From contig MU058065.1 in NCBI GenBank assembly GCA_013265495.1, forward strand, positions 2,581,003-2,645,002: a stretch of DNA of 64,000 nt, read 5' to 3'. Of this stretch, positions 14,040 through 55,036 are shown one piece after another. Numbering within the stretch: position 1 is the stretch's first letter; each line of letters opens with the position of its first letter. The DNA is from Vicugna vicugna (Eukaryota). The notes beneath the pieces were generated by a model. It did no database searches and was not told where the DNA came from. It worked only from the letters and a program-made list of their open reading frames with translations. Both the position numbers and the translations under genes were made by a program.

Positions 14040-16230
14040 TTTAGTTATTTTAAAATTTCAAACATAACTTGTAAAAGACTTTTAAAAATTAAAACAATTT
14101 GAAAGTAAAAAGAGAGAGAGAGAGAAAACGAAAATTCCCCACTTATCCTATTGGACTCCTCTCCCCATGGGAAACCAGTTGTACTGGTTTGGGGTATATC
14201 ATTAAAAACTTTTTCCATATAGCTATTGTCACATACACATATAGACACACAGCAGAATGCGTGTGTCTATATGTGTATATATATATGCACATGTATATAA
14301 TATATCATATACAAACATATTTACATAATTTATAAAAACACAAACCAGATTATTTTATACATATTAGTCTGAAAAATGTTTTCTCCTCCTGCTCCTCCCA
14401 TTTTCTGTTTTATTTTTTTTTTTTAGCATATGGCTTTTATCTGAGATAGCTCCTAGAGCTCTAGCCATTGCATCCCTATTCCAGACAAGAATAAGGAAGA
14501 AAGAGATGGGGAGAAAGAAAAAACAAGTTAGCAGCTTGAGCCCATGCCTGTAATGAGTTCTTAGAAATCCACAAACTTTTGTTTATACAGCTTTGGCTAT
14601 AAGCTTTTGCAAGAAAGCCCCTTATACAGGGAAGTTCAATCAGTAAAGAAAAAGAGGAGAGTGGATATTGGTTAGCTTATATGATAATCATGATTGGAGA
14701 TCATTTAATCACTGTATGTCTTCCTCATTCTTTTGCATGATGCAGAGTATTCCATAAAATGGTTCTATCACACATTATGTAACCATTAGCCTATTACAAA
14801 TAATTAGATTGTTTCTAGTTTTTTAATTGAAAATAATATTAACTATTGACATATTTATACAAATATCTGTATGTATGTGTCTTGGGAAATTTTTCAGGTT
14901 AGACACCCAGAGTTGGAATTTCTCAGTTAAAAGATAATGTATACTTCGATTTTGTTATATAACACCAAACTACAGTTACAATGTTTAATTTACACTCTGT
15001 CAGAATCTACAAGTGCCTATTTGCCCATATATATGCCTGCACTGATTTGAAATATAACTATCTGTGTATGAGCATGCATATGTGGGCTTGTTTCTGGATT
15101 CTCTGTTTTGTAAATTTGACCTATTTGTTTACTTCTGAGTCAAAATTACACTTTAAAAATTACCATAGTCTTATACTTTGCTTTGATATATGTTAGAGCA
15201 AGTGAGTACATACTTTTGTTGCTCCTTAACAAAAAATTCGTGTCTGTTTTTGCACATTTTTCTCTTCTGGATGAATTTGAGAAACTGCTTACCAATTTCT
15301 ATACTGTATTTGTAAACATAATACATCTCCTCAGAATGTCTTTTCAACTCTTCATAAAAGTAATGCACAATATTACTGGCATTATTTTCTGGGTGTTTTG
15401 TAGTTACTATTATTATTGTAATATTTTTGTTCCATTACATTTTCTAATTGATTATTGCTAATACAATAAAAAATTGTCCAGTTTTAAAACTTCCTTCTCA
15501 GTTCTTATAGGACATTTTTTTCTCATTAGATTCTCTTGGGTCTTCTAGGTAGACAATAATATCACCTAACTAATGAGTTTTTGATTTCATTTTTTCTAAA
15601 AATGAATGTATAGTTTTATATTTTTTCTTATCTTTTCCATTGGCCAGGACTGCCAACAAAATGTCAAAGAGCAATGGTGATTCTGAAAATCTGTATCATC
15701 TTCCTGATTTTGATGCACATGCTTCAAATATTTTACCAATAGGTAAAATGTTTGCTCTCAATTTCTCTTAGTCAATGTTTATAAAATAAGTCTGTTTCTT
15801 ATTTGCTAATATCATTTTGAAAAGTAGGAACATGTCAAAATCTATCAAGTGCTGAGTAGAATCTATTAAGCTCTATTAAACTGATTATATGGATCTCCCC
15901 TTTAATTTGTTAATGAATGTAGTGTAACTGATGGTTCCATAATTTTCTTTCTTTTTTTCTAGTTTTATCTGGTTTTTGTATTAGGGTTATAGTTGTTTAA
16001 TTGAATGAGTTGGAAAATAAGTCTTATCAATTTTAGAAATTCTGAAGCAGGATATAGAAATTTATATAACATTGATGTTATGTTTTCTATGAAGATTTGG
16101 GAAAATCTGGCTATGGAATCATGAGTCTGATGCTTTAAAAAAAATTAGAGTCATTTGACCAACTTTTCATTTTTTTTCCAGTGTCTATTCATCTACCTAC
16201 CCATGTTTTCTACCTCTTATTGAGTATTCT
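14040..16230 (-). mobile_element. Ancient L1ME-like remnant, with a possible MLT fragment at ~14420-14670
   Basis: Antisense L1 motifs: gttggaatttctcagttaaaag, tttctggattctctgttttg, ttggccaggactgccaacaaaatgtc, catcttcctgattttgatg. Confidence 0.7.
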
Positions 16231-21689: not shown

Positions 21690-22226
21690 TGGAAACAGCC
21701 CAAGTGTCTATCAACAGATGAGTGAGTGAAAAACAAATGTGGTATATATAAACAATGAACTATTATTCAGTCTCAGTAAAGAAGGAAACCCTGCCATTTG
21801 CACAACATGGATGAACCTGGAGGACATCATGTTAAGTGTAATAAGTCAGTGACAGAAGGACAACGAGGTATCTGAAATAGTCGGACTCATAGAAGCAGAG
21901 AACATAATAATGGTTGCCAGGAGGGTGGGTGGGGGAAATGAGGAATTGTTATTCCATAGGTATAACGTTTCAGTTTGCTAGATGAATAAACTCTAGATAT
22001 CAGCTGTACAACATAGTGCTTGAGGTTAACAATATGTGTTGTGCATTTCAAAATTTGTTGAGAGAATAACTGTTCTTACCAAAGCAAAACAATACAAAAA
22101 CAAAAGAACATGTGGAAACTCCAGAAGGTGTTGGAATGCTGACTACTTTGATCATGATGATGGTATTAAAGGTGTTTGCATATGTCCAAACTCTTCCAAC
22201 TGTACACATTAAATATGTTCAGTTCT
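21690..22226 (+). mobile_element. Old L1MA-like 3' end (ORF2 tail and 3'UTR), target of the young L1
   Basis: Degenerate ggaaacagcccaagtgtctatcaacagatg...atggatgaacctggaggacatcatgttaagtg. The sequence resumes as ttgtatatcaattat after the right TSD (28533-28547). Confidence 0.85.
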
Positions 22227-22560
22227 AGGGCGGAGCGCCAAACGGGGCGGAGCGCGACCGTTGCAGAGCGCGCAGCCGCACAGAACAGCGGAGCTACCGG
22301 CGGCGCAGGCAGGGGGAGAGCGGCCCCCCGCCTGTCGGGCAGGAACACAACCCCTGACCGAAGTGCTGGGAGGGGGCACGACCCGCCCTCCTGCCTGGCC
22401 AGTCTGCAACATCTGACTGCGGCATCCGGAGGGGCAGTGACCCGCCCGCCCACAGCAGAGGAGAGCTGCACCTGACCCCGTGTTAGGAGGAGGCGCGATC
22501 GGCTTGCCGACAGGTGCTGGGAGCAGCACAGAAGAGGGCGCCAACGGAGGGCCTCTGAAA
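22227..22560 (+). promoter_or_regulatory. L1 internal promoter / CpG-island-like 5'UTR segment
   Basis: Very GC- and CpG-rich against an AT-rich background. GC boxes GGGCGG at 22228 and 22245; CCGCCC motifs near 22383 and 22442. Confidence 0.8.
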
Positions 22561-23102
22561 ACAAGCTGAGCTTCCAAAACAGGACGAAGACAGAAGGACA
22601 TCACATTAAAAGCACACACACTCCAGAACACCGACAACCCCCTTTTTTTTTTTGTTTGTTTGTTTTTTGTTTTTGTTTTTGTTTTGTTTTTTTAATCTGT
22701 TTTTACCTGTTCTATTTTCAATTACTCTCTTAATTTTTACTTTTTAATTCATTTCTATTTCTCTTGGGTTTTGATGTCCTGTTATTGATTAGACACAGGC
22801 TTCAAACACATAAATTCATCTCCCCACCCCCCCCTTTTTTTTAAAGGTTTTAAAAGGACGTCTCCACCCGATTAATACTCTGCTTCAACCTGCTCTTCTA
22901 TTATTCATTATACATTGTTATCAAACCCTCTTTCTCCCTTCTTTTAAAAATCTTTCTCTCTCTCTCTCTTATTTTTTTCTCTCTTTTTTTCTTTTTTCTT
23001 TTTTTCCCCTAAGTTCTATTCCTAAATAGGCATTAGATAGATAAAATCCTTAAGATCCAAAATAGACAACTGATACTCCATAAACCACAGTGCCAGAGAG
23101 GT

Positions 23103-24005
23103 ATGAGCAAGATGAAGAAGCAGAGAAACCTTTCCCAATTAAAAGAACAAGAGGAATCCCCTGAAAGAAAGCTCAATGAAATAGACATCGATAGCCTACT
23201 AGATCAAGATTTCAAAAAAGGAGTGATCAAATTGCTGAAGGAATTAAAAGAGATAATGCTTAGAGAAATAAAATATGTCAAAAATGAAATTGAAGCTATA
23301 AAGAAGAGCCAAGCAAAATGGGAAAACTCATTGACAGACATGAGGAATGATCTAACAGCTGTGCAAAGCCGACTAGTTAATGCAGAGGAACGAATTAGTG
23401 ATCTAGAAGACAGGGCAACAGAAAGCACCCATTCAGAAGAACTACAAGATAAGCAAATAAAAAATAATGATAATAGCATAAGGGACCTATGGGATAATAT
23501 AAAGCGTCCCAATCTTCGCATAATAGGGGTCCCAGAAGGGGAAGAAGGATCAAAGGGGATTGAAAAGGTTTTTGAAGAAATCATGACTGAAAACTTCCCA
23601 AACTTAAAGAAGGAATCAGATATCCAAGTACAGGAAGCTCAGAGGGTCCCAAACAGGAAGAATCCAAATAGACCCACACCAAGACATATCATAATCAAGA
23701 TGGCCAGAGTCAAGGATAAAGAAATGATTCTAAAGGCAGCAAGAGAAAAGCAAAGAGTGAACTACAAGGGAACCCCCATAAGGCTCTCAGCTGATTTCTC
23801 TACACAAACACTACAGGCCAGAAGGGAGTGGCAAGATATATTCAAAGCCCTGAATGAAAAAAAGATGCAGCCTAGGATACTTTATCCAGCAAGGCTATCC
23901 TTTAGGATAGAAGGAGAAATAAAGAGTTTCACAGACAAAAAAAAGCTGCAGGAGTTTAGCAACACTAAACCCATGCTAAAAGAAATATTGAAAGGGCTAT
24001 TCTAA
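23103..24005 (+). CDS. ORF1: LINE-1 ORF1p, RNA-binding nucleic acid chaperone (coiled coil, RRM, CTD)
   Basis: 300-aa open frame with L1 ORF1 motifs LWDNIKRPNLRIIGVPEGEE, ENFPNL, TPRHIIIK, ARREW, YPARLSF. Confidence 0.97.
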   Translation: MSKMKKQRNLSQLKEQEESPERKLNEIDIDSLLDQDFKKGVIKLLKELKEIMLREIKYVKNEIEAIKKSQAKWENSLTDMRNDLTAVQSRLVNAEERISDLEDRATESTHSEELQDKQIKNNDNSIRDLWDNIKRPNLRIIGVPEGEEGSKGIEKVFEEIMTENFPNLKKESDIQVQEAQRVPNRKNPNRPTPRHIIIKMARVKDKEMILKAAREKQRVNYKGTPIRLSADFSTQTLQARREWQDIFKALNEKKMQPRILYPARLSFRIEGEIKSFTDKKKLQEFSNTKPMLKEILKGLF

Positions 24006-24402
24006 ATAGAAAAGCAGCAGGATGCTACAGAAATGAGAAACGTACAACTGGAAAGGTGATAACTCATGAATTACAAATAAAGAAAACACGAAATTATAAA
24101 AGAAGACATACAAATCACTGAGAGTGGGAGAGGGAGGCAGGGAAATATAGAATTTTTTTTCTTTCTTTTTTAAATTTTTTTAACAGTAGGATGGGTTTGA
24201 GATCATGTTATTATCAGTTTATTAAAAACGGGTATAGGTTAATAGATTTACAAAAAAGGGTAACCACAAGTCAAAAATTTACAAGGGAGTCACAAAAATT
24301 AAATAAAATCCATGATAATACAAAGGAAAATTACCAAACCACAAAAGGAAGAAGAAAGGAACAAAGAGGATATACCAATTCAACTGCAAAGATAAGTTCA
24401 AA

Positions 24403-27400
24403 ATGGCAATAAACACACATCTATCATTAATTACTGTAAATGTTAATGGACTAAATGCTCCAGTCAAAAGACATAGAGTGGCAGACTGGATAATAAAGCA
24501 AGAACCTTCAATATGCTGCATACAAGAGACCCACTTTAGGGAGAAGGACACATATAGATTGAGAGTGAAAGGATGGAAAAGGATATTCCATGCAAATGGA
24601 AAAGCCAAAAAAGCAGGTGTTGCAGTACTGATTTCAGACAAAATAGACTTTAAAACAAAGGCCATAAAGAAAGATAAAGAAGGACATTTTATAATGATTA
24701 AAGGAGTGATACAAGATGAAGATATTACACTCGTTAATATATATGCACCCAATATAGGAGCACCTAAGTACATACAAGAATTACTAACAGAGATAAAGGG
24801 GGATATTGATGGGAATACAATCATAGTTGGAGATTTTAACACTGCATTAACATCACTAGACAGATCTTCCAGACAGAAAATAAACAAGGCAACAGAGAAA
24901 TTAAATACTACAATAGAAAAACTAGATTTGGTGGATATTTTCAGAGCTTTACACCCCCAAAAAATAGAATATACATTCTTTTCAAGTGCACATGGAACAT
25001 TTTCCAGGATCGATCATGTACTTGGACACAAAAGAAACCTCAACAAATTTAAGAAGATAGAAATTATCTCAAGCATCTTTACTGACCACAATGCCATGAA
25101 ACTGGAAATCAACAACAGAGAAACAAAGGAGAAAAAAAGAAAAGCATGGAGATTAAACAATATGTTATTGAAAAAACAATGGATCAATGAGGAAATCAAA
25201 GCTGAAATTAAAAAATACCTTGAGACAAATGATAATGAAAGCACAACCACTCAAAACCTATGGGACACAGCAAAGGCAGTGCTAAGAGGGAAGTTTATAG
25301 CGATACAGGCCTTCCTCAAAAAAGAAGAACAATCTCAAATAAACAAGTTAACCCACCACCTGAATCAATTAGAAAAAGAAGAACAAAAAGCCCCAAAAAG
25401 CAGCAGAAGGAAGGAAATAATAAAGATCAGAGAGGAATTAAATACAATAGAGATTAACAAGACCATAGAAAAAATCAACCAAACCAAAAGCTGGTTTTTT
25501 GAAAAAGTAAATAAAATCGACAAACCTCTGGCCAAACTCACAAAGAAGAAAAAAGAGAGAGCACAAATTAGCAAAATAAGAAAGGAAAATGGAGAAATTA
25601 CAACAAACAAAATAGAAATACAGAATATCATACGAGAATATTATGAAAAACTATATGGAACCAAACTGGATAACCTAGAGGAGATGGACAAGTTTCTGGA
25701 AACATACTGTCCACCAAAACTGAATCAAGAAGAAACTGAACACTTGAACAATCCGATCACTAGAAAGGAAATAGAAATAGCAATTAAAAACCTCCCTACA
25801 AATAAAAGTCCAGGACCGGATGGCTTCACCGGGGAATTCTACCAAACATACAAAGAAGAACTCATACCAGTCCTTCTCAAACTCTTCCAGACGATTGAAA
25901 AGGAGGGAATACTCCCAAACTCATTCTATGAAGCCACCATCACCCTGATACCAAAACCAGGCAAAGACACTACAAAAAAAGAGAATTATAGGCCAATATC
26001 ACTGATGAACATAGACGCCAAAATCCTCACCAAAATTTTAGCAAATAGAATCCAACAACACATAAAAAAGATTATACATCATGACCAAGTGGGGTTCATC
26101 CCAGGGACACAAGGCTGGTTCAACATACGCAAATCAATCAATGTAATACATCACATCAACAAGAGAAAGGACAAAAACCACATGATCATCTCAATCGATG
26201 CAGAAAAAGCATTTGATAAAATTCAACACCCATTTATGATAAAAACTCTCGCCAAAGTGGGTATAGAGGGAACATATCTCAACATAATAAAAGCTATATA
26301 TGACAAACCTACAGCCAGCATAGTTCTCAACGGTGAAAAACTCAAAAGCTTCCCACTAAAATCTGGGACAAGACAAGGATGCCCACTATCACCACTCCTA
26401 TTCAACATAGTCCTGGAAGTCCTAGCCACAGCAATCAGGCAAGAGAAAGAAATAAAAGGGATCCAAATTGGAAAAGAAGAGGTAAAAGTGTCATTATATG
26501 CTGACGACATGTTACTATATATAGAAAACCCTAAAAGGTCCACAAAAAAGCTACTAGAGCTGATCGAAGAATTCAGCAAGGTAGCAGGTTACAAAATTAA
26601 TGTTCAAAAATCAGTTGCCTTTCTTTACACTAACGATAAATCAACAGAAAAAGAAAGTAAAGAAACAATCCCCTTTAAAATAGCACCCAAAGTAATAAAA
26701 TATCTGGGAATAAATCTAACCAAGGAGGTGAAAGAATTATACACAGAAAACTATAAACCATTGATGAAGGAAATTAAAGAAGACTTTAAAAAATGGAAAG
26801 ATATTCCATGCTCTTGGATTGGAAGAATCAATATTGTTAAAATGGTCACACTGCCCAAGGCAATCTACAGATTTAATGCAATCCCTATCCAATTACCCAG
26901 GACATATTTCACAGAACTAGAACAAATCATAATAAAATTTATATGGAACCATCAAAGACCTAGAATTGCTAAAGCATTACTGAAGAGAAAGAAAGAGGCT
27001 GGAGGAATAACTCTCCCAGACTTCAGACAATACTATAGAGCTACAGTCATCAAGACAGCATGGTATTGGTACCAAAACAGACATATAGACCAATGGAACA
27101 GAATAGAGAGCCCAGAAATGAACCCACAAACTTTTGGTCAACTCATCTTCGACAAAGGAGGCAAGAATATACAATGGAATAAAGACAGTCTCTTCAGCAA
27201 ATGGTGTTGGGAAAACTGGACAGCAGCATGTAAAACAATGAAGCTAGAACACACCCTTACACCATATACAAAAATCAACTCAAAATGGATTAAAGACTTA
27301 AACATAAGACAAGATACAATAAACCTCCTAGAGGAAAACATAGGCAAAACATTATCTGACATACATTTCAAAAATTTTCTCCTAGAAGAAATAAAAGCAA

Positions 27401-28200
27401 GAATAAACAAATGGGACCTAATGAAACTTACAAGCTTCTGCAGAGCAAAGGAAACCAGAAATAAAACAAGAAGAAAACCTACGGAATGGGAGAAAATTTT
27501 TGCAAGTGAAACCGACAAAGGCTTGATCTCCAAAATATATAAGCAGCTCATACGACTCAATAAGAAAAAAATAAACAACCCAATCCAAAAATGGGCAGAA
27601 GACCTAAACAAGCAATTCTCCAAGGAAGACATACAAATGATCAAAAAGCACATGAAAAAATGTTCAATATCACTAATTATCAGAGAAATGCAAATCAAAA
27701 CTACAATGAGGTATCACCTCACACCAGTCAGAATGGCCGTCATTCAAAAATCCAAAAATGACAAATGCTGGAGAGGCTGTGGAGAAAGGGGAACCCTCCT
27801 ACACTGCTGGTGGGAATGCAGTTTGGTGCAGCCACTATGGAAAACAGTGTGGAGATTCCTCAAAAGACTAGGAATAGACTTACCATATGACCCAGGAATC
27901 CCACTCCTGGGCTTGTACCCAGAAGGAAATCTACTTCAGGATGACACCTGCACCCCAATGTTCATAGCAGCACTATTTACAATAGCCAAAACATGGAAAC
28001 AACCTAAATGTCCATCAACAGGTGACTGGATAAAGAAGATGTGGTATATTTATACAATGGAATACTACTCAGCCATAAAAACCGACAACATAATGCCATT
28101 TGCAGCAACATGGATGCTCCTAGAGAATGTCATTCTAAGTGAAGTAAGCCAGAAAGAGAAAGAAAAATACCATATGAGATCGCTCATATGTGGAATCTAA
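24403..28200 (+). CDS. ORF2: LINE-1 ORF2p: APE endonuclease, reverse transcriptase, C-terminal cysteine-rich domain
   Basis: 1265-aa uninterrupted ORF. EN motifs NVNGLN, QETH, GDFN, SRIDH, TDHN. RT motifs SPGPDGF, QGCPLSP and YADD (26497-26508). [18 protein letters not shown] knuckle at 27766-27819. Confidence 0.98.
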
Positions 28201-28281
28201 AAAACAAAAACAAACAAAAACAAAGCATAAATACAGGACAGAAATAGACTCATGGACAGAGAATACAGACTTGTGGTTACC

Positions 28282-28310
28282 GGGAGGGGGGGGGTAGAGG
28301 GTGGGAAGGG
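28282..28310 (+). other. G-rich tract in L1 3'UTR (potential G-quadruplex)
   Basis: GGGA-G(n)-TAGAGGGTGGGAAGGG provides at least 4 G-runs. A poly-purine G tract is a known L1 3'UTR feature. Confidence 0.7.
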
Positions 28311-28547
28311 ATAGACTGGGATTTCAAAATTGTAGAATAGATAAACAAGATTACACTGTATAGCACAGGGAAATATACACAAAATGTTATGATAAATCAC
28401 AGAGAAAAAAATGTGACAATGAGTGTGTATATGTCCATGAATGACTGAAAAATTGTGCTGAACACTGGAATTTGACACAACACTGTAAAATGATTATGAA
28501 TCAATAAAAAATGTAAAAAAATGTTCAGTTCTTTGTATATCAATTAT

Positions 28548-28750
28548 GTAAAGAAGATGTGGTACATATTTACAATGGAATACTACTCAGCCATAAAAAG
28601 AATAAAATAATGCCACTTGCAGCAATATGGATGGACCTGAAGACTGTCATTCAAAGTGAAGTGGGCTGGAAAGAAAGAAAAATGCCGTATGACATCATTT
28701 ATATGAAGAATCTAAAAAATAAAAATAATAATAATAAGGACACAAATGAA
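28548..28750 (+). mobile_element. Diverged L1 fragment (end of ORF2 and start of 3'UTR), truncated at both ends
   Basis: aagaagatgtggtacatatttacaatggaatactactcagccataaaaag closely resembles 28033-28200 of the intact L1 but is frameshifted. Confidence 0.85.
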
Positions 28751-29536
28751 CCAATTATTACATTGATTTCTTGAATATGTGTAAGCACATTTGACTGTCC
28801 TTTATGATTGGATTACCTCATTCAGTTGTTTCTTACTTTGTAGTTGACTTTATTTCTTTGATAACTATGTAAGTTTAAAAAGCTAAAGATCTAATCTGTT
28901 CTTAGAAACAATAATTAGTACATATATGAAAATGAAAAAATGTGCAGTATACTGTTTATATGTATTTACATGCAATATAATATGTATGTGCAGTCAAACT
29001 GTAATAATTCTACATAATAAAACTGGAAAAAAAGAAAAAGAAAAACAAAAACAAACAAAAAAGAAGTGCTGAAAGAGGGAGATGAAAATAGCATTTTTGT
29101 TTTTTAGATATTTGTATTCATATATTTCTTCAGAATATTAAAAAGTATTATCATTTGAAAAAAATTATGTCTCAATACAACTGTTTAAAAAAATCAAAAG
29201 TAGCATATGCATTATTATCTATCTTGCCCTTTTAACCTTTCAGTATATATTGGAATCCACTTGTACCCATTCATAAAGCTCTTTTTTTAATATAGCTGCA
29301 AAGTACTCTGTTATGTGGATGTACCATATTTGATTCATTGAATATTTTGAACTATTAAATATTTGGATTCTTTTCAACCTTTTGCAGATGTACATGATAC
29401 CTCAAGGAATAACACTGTTTTCATTGTTTCCTTTTGTGGAGATACGCCTTCAAGTAAATTCCTACCATTGGTCATAGAGTAAATCCATGTGATTTTGTAA
29501 GATGCTGCCAACTGCCCAGCTTAGGTGAGTACCATT

Positions 29537-29889
29537 AATTTTGGGGACATACATATTTTGCTGAAGTATAGTCAGTTTATAATGTTGTGTCAGTTTCTTG
29601 TGTACAGCATAATTCTTCAGTCATACATGAACATACATATATTTGTTTTCATATTCTTTCTCACCATAAGTTACTACAAGATATTGAATATAGTTTCCTG
29701 TGCTATACAGTAGGACCTTGTTGTTTATCAGACTTTGTGAGAATCCTCCTGTATTTCAAAGTGAGAGACACTCTGCCAGAGTTCAGTAGGTGTTCTGTGC
29801 AATTCAGTGGGTCTGTAGATATAATTCTTGGTTTATTTGTGGAGAGGACAGGCTGTGAGTCTCTCTACTCTGCCATCTCGGTTGGAAAC
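29537..29889 (-). mobile_element. Bipartite mini-L1: ~160 nt 5'UTR joined to ~190 nt 3'UTR, TSD-flanked
   Basis: Minus strand starts ccgagatggcagagtag (L1 5' terminus, YY1-like) and continues into ataaacaacaaggtcctactgtatagcacagg, homologous to 28341-28490. TSD aggtgagtaccatt (29523-29536) / aggtgattatcatt (29890-29903). Confidence 0.75.
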
Positions 29890-30624
29890 AGGTGATTATC
29901 ATTTCATACAGCCATCGGCAACATGTGATGATTGTGTCTGTCACCCGAAACCTTGCTAGCAGGTTGTTTCTCAGACTTTTGCTGTTTGCTAATTTGAGAG
30001 AAGAGACATGGTATCTCTGTGTCGTTGTGTTGTGCATTTATTTTACCATAAGCAAAATCGGGTATCTTTTCTTGCTTACATGCCCATATGTGTGTCTTTT
30101 TTTCTGAACTGTATGTTTATGCCTTCTGTCCATTTTGTATGTTTCTTTTTTCTCATTTTTAAGAGTTTATTTATGAATTAAGATTAGTCCATTGTCTATG
30201 TGGCAAATATATTTTTCCTGTTTGTAATTTGGTTTTTACTTTTCTGACTAACTTCTTCCATGCAAAAAGTTTTATTTTAGATTTCGTGATTGAATTTATC
30301 AAGTTTTTTCTTCCTAATTTTGAGCTTTCTCTTCCTTTTAATGGGGCCCCAGGACCACTCTGTTTTAATTACGCCGGCTGTATATTGTGTTTTAATCTAG
30401 CAGAGATTGTTTCCACTCATTGCTCTTATTTTTTAGGATCTTCCTAGATTTTCTTGAATGGTTAAAACGCATGTAAACTTTAGAAACAACTTTTTTAGCT
30501 CCAAAAAAAGTGAACTCTTAATTTAAAAAAATTTGAGATCTCATTAAATTTATATACTACTTTGGGAAGACTTGACAGGTTTGTGATGTTGAATGGGTTT
30601 GTTCAAGAACAAATACATCTTTCT

Positions 30625-32108: not shown

Positions 32109-32232
32109 TTTTTCGGGGAGGGGAGTTGGTAATAGGTTTATTTATTTATTTTATTAGTGGAGGTACTGGGGACTGAACACAGGACTCATGCATGCCAGGC
32201 ATGCACTCTACCACTGAGCTACACCCTCCCCC
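32109..32232 (-). mobile_element. tRNA-Ala-derived camelid SINE (vic-1-like)
   Basis: Reverse complement GGGGAGGGTGTAGCTCAGTGGTAGAGTGCATG...GTTCAGTCCCCAGTACCTCC has A and B boxes and a (TAAA)n tail. Imperfect TSD gaaacttatatt / gaaccttatatt. Confidence 0.88.
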
Positions 32233-33212: not shown

Positions 33213-33669
33213 ATATATGCATAATATACATACATATATATATATATATGTGGTATGTTAACACCCTTCTTAGGCTGGTGTTGGGAAAAAGAAGCGGGGA
33301 ATAAGATTTGATCAGACATAGTCAGGACCGGAGCAACTGGTCTGGGGCAATTGGCCAACAATCTAAAATGCAATTGCTAAGGTGATGTGACCAGATTGCC
33401 AAGAATGCAGATCAGGTGGCTTGTGGGCCCAGCCATGAGACTTTTAGGACAGTGATGACACTCAGGTAGAATCTTCTTAATGGGGAATAGGAATGACTAT
33501 ACCTCTTGGTTAAAATGGGGTTCAACCAACCTCAGGAACCAAAAGAACATGGTGATGTCTCCCCTGGGGTTCACACCCTGTTCTGTGACCCCTAGGGAAG
33601 ACATCACCACATGTCCAGGTCCATTCCAGATCATGAGACCAAGGCAGGACTCCACTCATCACACTTTGG

Positions 33670-54918: not shown

Positions 54919-55036
54919 TCTCTCTCTCTCTATATATATATATGTGTATATATACATATATACACACATATATATACACATACATATATATGTATGTATA
55001 TGTATGTATATACGTATGTATGTGTATATATATATA
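54919..55036. repeat. Compound (TC)n-(TA/CA/TG)n microsatellite
   Basis: About 105 bp of alternating purine-pyrimidine sequence following (TC)6. Confidence 0.95.

Follow-up and report, generated by a model that had tools for sequence, protein, structure and literature searches.

The window, meaning the whole 64-kb stretch of mammalian DNA that was analyzed, contains a short minus-strand L1 derivative, termed here mini-L1, and a separate intact-looking L1 at about 22227-28520 on the plus strand. The latter comprises a GC-rich 5' end, ORF1 (23103-24005, 300 aa), an inter-ORF spacer of ~400 nt and ORF2 (24403-28200, 1265 aa), is bounded by a perfect 12-bp target-site duplication (TSD; 22215-22226 and 28521-28532) and is possibly a young element. 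Neither its ORF1p nor its ORF2p had an exact counterpart in a protein sequence collection. Flanking it are older L1 ORF2-end fragments at 21690-21863 and 28549-28728 that match its 3' end at 73% and 83%, respectively, so that an older L1 may have been the target into which the intact element integrated. An Rfam tRNA match at 32158-32228 on the minus strand (43.7 bits) leads into a tail rich in AAAT and is probably a tRNA-derived SINE, and comparison of the window with itself revealed short palindromic self-matches at 14233-14278, 33550-33609 and 54931-55036.

The insert enclosed by the mini-L1 TSD is 353 bp (29537-29889, minus strand) and consists of a 160-nt L1 5'UTR head, a 168-nt L1 3'UTR end and a tail. 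The features, in the orientation of the element, are:

29890..29903, minus strand: TSD, upstream copy; agrees with 29523-29536 at 12/14 positions, the best pair obtained
29730..29889, minus strand: initial ~160 nt of the 5'UTR of an old L1, starting GTTTCCAACCGAGATGGC; aligns with L1 5'UTR starts in metagenome contigs L003-L009
29729..29729, minus strand: junction G, placed by column alignment with seven relatives and by the loose ends behind 29729
29562..29728, minus strand: last ~168 nt of an L1 3'UTR, to the poly(A) start of paralogues; 72.8% to the 3'UTR of the intact L1
29537..29561, minus strand: 25-nt tail, 40% A; paralogues have poly(A) here
29523..29536, minus strand: TSD, downstream copy, pairing with 29890-29903

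The two TSD copies, AATGATAATCACCT (29903-29890) and AATGGTACTCACCT (29536-29523), were the top-scoring direct repeat flanking the insert. In a comparable search over 13x41 offsets with 3000 random window pairs, a match of at least 12/14 occurred in ~0.3% of draws, a result that upholds the proposal of the sequence-only reading that a single TSD surrounds both parts. The flanks, 29200-29522 and 29904-30300, resemble a single, far older L1 3' region in antisense orientation that the insertion may have interrupted; they were found at single-copy depth at 80% likeness.

The identity of each half was established by alignment. Positions 29722-29550 aligned with the 3'UTR of the intact L1 (28344-28515) at 72.8% over 173 nt, and the head aligned with L1 5'UTR starts in all seven metagenome contigs returned for the head motif, confirming that an L1 5' terminus is joined to an L1 3'UTR at about 29729. 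In one of these contigs, L008, the conserved head motif at the L1 5'UTR start is duplicated in tandem over ~43 nt. Nothing else in the window, including the 5' end of the intact L1, matched the 5' half of mini-L1 significantly (best E 0.066), in agreement with the earlier remark that it differs from that of the young L1. The intact L1 was rejected as the parent, being only 73% alike in the 3'UTR and unlike at the 5' end.

The head contains an ATGGC core that we take to be YY1-like. It is an L1 5'UTR and not the tRNA-, 7SL- or 5S-derived Pol III head of a classical SINE. On the element's own strand no ORF of at least 20 aa was found inside mini-L1, no Rfam family matched it at gathering scores, its predicted RNA fold was unremarkable (z -0.19), no tandem repeats were found near it, and there was no sign of an effect on a host gene. 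The 3'UTR part ends where paralogues enter poly(A), as indicated by 325 contigs of one DNA run (X1) that break off into poly(T) just before 29562 when read on the plus strand. The tail itself (29561-29537) is no clean poly(A), a composition that fits either a decayed poly(A) or a short untemplated or transduced piece. Cleavage by the L1 endonuclease has the consensus TT/AAAA, to which the flank at the putative site, TGA/AATG, is a loose fit.

Boundaries of the junction

The junction reads ...AAGTCTG/ATAAAC at 29729/29728 (the slash marks the break), and the homologous point in the intact L1 reads GAATAG/ATAAAC, with the AG at 28339-28340. In order to compare further copies, assembled contigs of two DNA runs (X1, X2) and two RNA runs (X15, X18) were mapped to 29430-30029 at 80% likeness; these are four of the 24 runs listed, and X16, X17, X19 and X20, with small shares, were left out. 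In each of the four runs the most frequent loose end was at 29729, where the match ended in 849, 825, 315 and 94 contigs. Contigs breaking off there read ...AAAATAG/ATAAAC on the element strand and are ordinary L1 3'UTRs that extend further upstream. Since both these unjoined 3'UTRs and the intact L1 have AG at this point, the 3' part of mini-L1 begins directly after an AG. The AG noted previously for the intact L1 was verified. In the unjoined 3'UTRs there is no pyrimidine tract before the AG: only 12 of the 30 upstream bases are pyrimidines, a purine-rich run adjoins the AG, and consensus agreement upstream of it is only 0.55-0.72.

The donor side was approached through the seven relatives, which are metagenome L1 5'UTRs belonging to another L1 lineage than the parent of mini-L1. 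At the column aligned with the last head base, G, all seven read G/GTA, and their donor sites fit MAG/GTRAGT at 5-7 of 9 positions. A second GT lies 8 nt upstream in the relatives and fits the donor consensus equally well or better in six of seven; the spacing from the alignment anchor to the junction is 54-55 nt in the relatives versus 52 nt in mini-L1. In the mapped runs, 23, 19, 7 and 2 contigs have G at position 29728 of the element strand, amounting to 12-18% of the depth in three runs, as would be expected of unspliced heads. Two contigs (X18 no. 24 and X15 no. 16) match the head and, on reaching the junction or its vicinity, diverge into dissimilar sequence, behaving as unspliced parents would. 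No loose end at the donor position was present among the 24 rows listed (1160 more exist). We infer a GT donor in the parent from this genome. Of the two boundaries that the sequence-only reading proposed to check, GT and AG, the AG is borne out by the 3'UTRs of this genome, while the GT is seen in the seven relatives of the other lineage only. From local dinucleotide frequencies, a random break would fall on GT..AG with a chance of about 0.030 x 0.067 = 0.002, or perhaps 0.01-0.02 if a slip of a few bases is allowed.

Copies of the junction in the genome

A junction-crossing record was defined as one with at least 31 letters on both sides, so that record 7 of X1, with 8 nt across, was not counted. 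The junction was crossed by 11 of the 32 pieces listed (79,371 more exist): four of eight in X1, two of eight in X2, four of eight in X15 and one of eight in X18. The crossing pieces differ from the window copy by 10-18%, whereas the contigs of the window's own flanks differ at 0 sites. One pair from X1 and X2 has identical coordinates and likely represents one locus. Four such divergent contigs occur in a single DNA run, each near single-copy depth, and are therefore not alleles of the window locus. Thus mini-L1 is multi-copy with one recurrent junction, and uniqueness of the junction, which the sequence-only reading had named among its grounds for refutation, does not apply. The divergence of the copies suggests that the family is old and extinct.

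With flank depths of 15 (X1) and 9-10 (X2), the summed junction depth at 29729 was 3974, or 263 times flank depth, in X1 and 2612, or 284 times, in X2; these are rough values, as summed contig depth is no true copy number and perhaps includes unspliced heads at the junction. The copies probably number a few hundred. At a point 15 nt into the head the depth is 13962 in X1 and 8920 in X2, of which the junction, with 3974 and 2612, reaches ~0.28-0.29; relative to the 3'UTR peak depth it reaches only about 0.1%. The head (29730..29889) is repeated in the genome at 100-2000 times single-copy depth, depending on the bin, its type peaking near 2,000 times single copy. The 3'UTR type at 29562-29729 is extremely abundant, with a peak summed depth of 260,000-300,000 times single copy. 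In the two RNA runs the junction stood at 0.20% and 0.095% of the 3' peak compared with 0.10% in DNA, which is no clear enrichment in material where contigs cannot rank expression and the flanks of the window locus were without coverage.

Three organism labels accounted for 80-93% of the sampled words of 29200-30300 in 14 runs, indicating that the locus is common to closely related species. No second copy of the junction was found in the 64-kb window. The junction pattern had 0 matches in metagenome and viral contigs and the head pattern 0 matches in prokaryote genomes, collections that need not hold host DNA. A 17-base head motif present in two viral contigs was taken as chance, the longer pattern being unmatched there.

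Relation to known retroelements

The nearest described counterparts are the human SpIREs, L1 copies spliced from a 5'UTR donor and regarded as dead ends in the accessible text of Larson et al. (2018, PMC5860796). According to that text they total 131 copies with acceptors in the 5'UTR or ORF1; SpIRE97/622 accounts for 116 loci, 1.8% of full-length human L1s, and the class needing ORF1p in trans has only 11 copies. Mini-L1 shares with them a junction that recurs at multiple loci, a putative donor in the 5'UTR and, of the L1 insertion hallmarks, the TSD; GT-AG boundaries are established for SpIREs. As far as the source describes them, SpIREs retain ORF2 and have the acceptor in the 5'UTR or ORF1, whereas mini-L1 has its acceptor in the 3'UTR and has lost both ORFs; it would also need all protein in trans, and its copies seem more numerous. 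By its sequence mini-L1 is SpIRE-like in working but outside the described human SpIRE classes.

In form mini-L1 is an ORF-less bipartite LINE: the 5' terminus of a LINE is joined to its 3' end, no ORF is left, and there are multiple copies. In the available portion of Kojima (2018, PMC5786205) such elements are reported from RTE, Ingi, Vingi and R2 only, and L1 appears there through HAL1, which codes for ORF1. RIME, NARTc, Bov-A, RTESINE and the Vingi derivatives are, in the portions seen, likewise multi-copy unions of a 5' terminus and a 3' end without an ORF, presumably transcribed by Pol II; they differ in having arisen by internal deletion, while mini-L1 is derived from L1, has a splice-like junction and is only a candidate for self-propagation. 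HAL1 is also a non-autonomous mammalian L1 derivative (PMC5786205, PMC6501411, each in part), but it keeps ORF1. Processed pseudogenes resemble mini-L1, on its proposed origin, in arising from spliced, polyadenylated Pol II RNA that is inserted in trans with a TSD; the source RNA of mini-L1 would be that of L1, and the beginning of an internal promoter is retained in the copy.

A family of L1 copies spliced from 5'UTR to 3'UTR was not found in the full-text literature, a search outside of which lay Dfam, Repbase, most subscription journals and supplements. No such family appeared in the accessible parts of PMC8605555, PMC6675863, PMC6726744, PMC5872511, PMC6501411, PMC13756887, PMC2896524 and bioRxiv 2025.02.02.635956. 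An earlier description is possible.

Origin and meaning of the family

The best reading of mini-L1 is an ORF-less, SpIRE-like family generated by 5'UTR-to-3'UTR splicing and mobilized wholly in trans. An extinct L1 family would have carried a GT donor ~160 nt into the 5'UTR and an AG ~170 nt before the poly(A), and some full-length transcripts would have been spliced from the one to the other, a single intron taking out everything from the remainder of the 5'UTR through ORF1 and ORF2 to the first part of the 3'UTR. The product would be a polyadenylated RNA of ~330 nt that encodes no L1 protein, and its insertion would therefore depend on ORF1p and ORF2p from other L1s acting by target-primed reverse transcription and producing the TSD. 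Copies would usually be complete because the RNA is short. Recurrence of such events would account for the estimated few hundred copies, the majority of which would be dead ends made directly from parental transcripts. That the interior was removed before integration, as had been proposed, is supported by the one TSD enclosing both halves.

Taking all versions together, we infer a splice origin with high confidence, since the junction falls on splice dinucleotides, AG in the unjoined 3'UTRs and G/GT in every relative. The narrower proposal, that full-length L1 transcripts were spliced repeatedly and mobilized in trans with the copies coming mostly direct from parents, is somewhat favored. The missing pyrimidine tract and the upstream GT of the relatives, which fits as well or better in six of seven, count against it, and the junction share of heads, far above the 1.8% of human SpIRE97/622, fits self-amplification better, human SpIREs that depend on trans help numbering only 11.

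The sequence-only reading had held that a multi-copy element would be a SINE-like parasite; repeated parental splicing with trans-mobilization also yields many copies with one junction, so that copy number alone does not imply such a parasite. A conceivable though doubtful alternative is that the copies were splice-born and then self-propagating, with one or a few that retained enough internal Pol II promoter in the 160-nt head serving as masters; the family would then be a non-autonomous, SINE-like L1 parasite built from the two ends of L1 only. Junction-bearing heads appear to make up roughly a quarter to a third of the family's heads compared with ~2% for human SpIREs, a high share for RNAs that get no help in cis. 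This share is inflated, because short RNAs such as one of 330 nt are almost always reverse-transcribed in full, whereas most L1 insertions lose the head and the 5' end survives in few; measured against the 3'UTR depth the junction is rare, and the RNA runs gave no clear enrichment. The depth ratios fit both the parental-splicing and the self-propagation models. Retention of the extreme 5' terminus in the head, usual in bipartite non-autonomous LINEs in the part of PMC5786205 available, speaks for self-propagation. The accessible text of PMC5860796 bears on both sides, as intra-5'UTR splicing cripples the human promoter but leaves weak activity in SpIRE97/622.

Microhomology at the break would allow another route, in which one founder arose by DNA deletion or by a reverse-transcriptase template jump and was then amplified like RIME or Bov-A. 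The junction G fits both the last donor-exon base (G/GT) and the G of the acceptor AG, so that a microhomology-guided deletion could also have produced it. Both ends share, besides this G, an A-rich context (AAA(A/G)TCYG in the head, AAAATAG at the acceptor, then xTA); the acceptor has no pyrimidine tract, and internal deletion is the usual explanation given for bipartite LINEs in the available portion of PMC5786205. This route is nevertheless unlikely, given the low chance of a break on GT and AG together and the GT kept at the break column throughout the relatives. That a full-length insertion later underwent a one-off deletion, or that two independent insertions happen to adjoin, is highly improbable and effectively refuted by the contig mapping, for although the window and the metagenome and viral contigs hold no other junction copy, at least four divergent junction-crossing contigs occur in one DNA run, the depth is far above single copy, and one TSD surrounds both halves, which marks one insertion rather than two.

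Splicing from 5'UTR to 3'UTR would extend the self-splicing of L1 from trimming of the promoter to loss of the whole coding body, and would mean that an ORF-less L1 RNA was, on many occasions, mobilized in trans within a germ line. Copies of mini-L1 may have been annotated as two unrelated L1 pieces. The family offers a natural test of how leaky the cis preference of L1 is for an RNA that has L1 ends but no ORF, and of whether 160 nt of L1 head suffice to keep a non-autonomous lineage going. If self-propagation were true, mini-L1 would be a SINE-like family from a clade for which no such elements have been reported, and would contradict the view of spliced L1 copies as dead ends.
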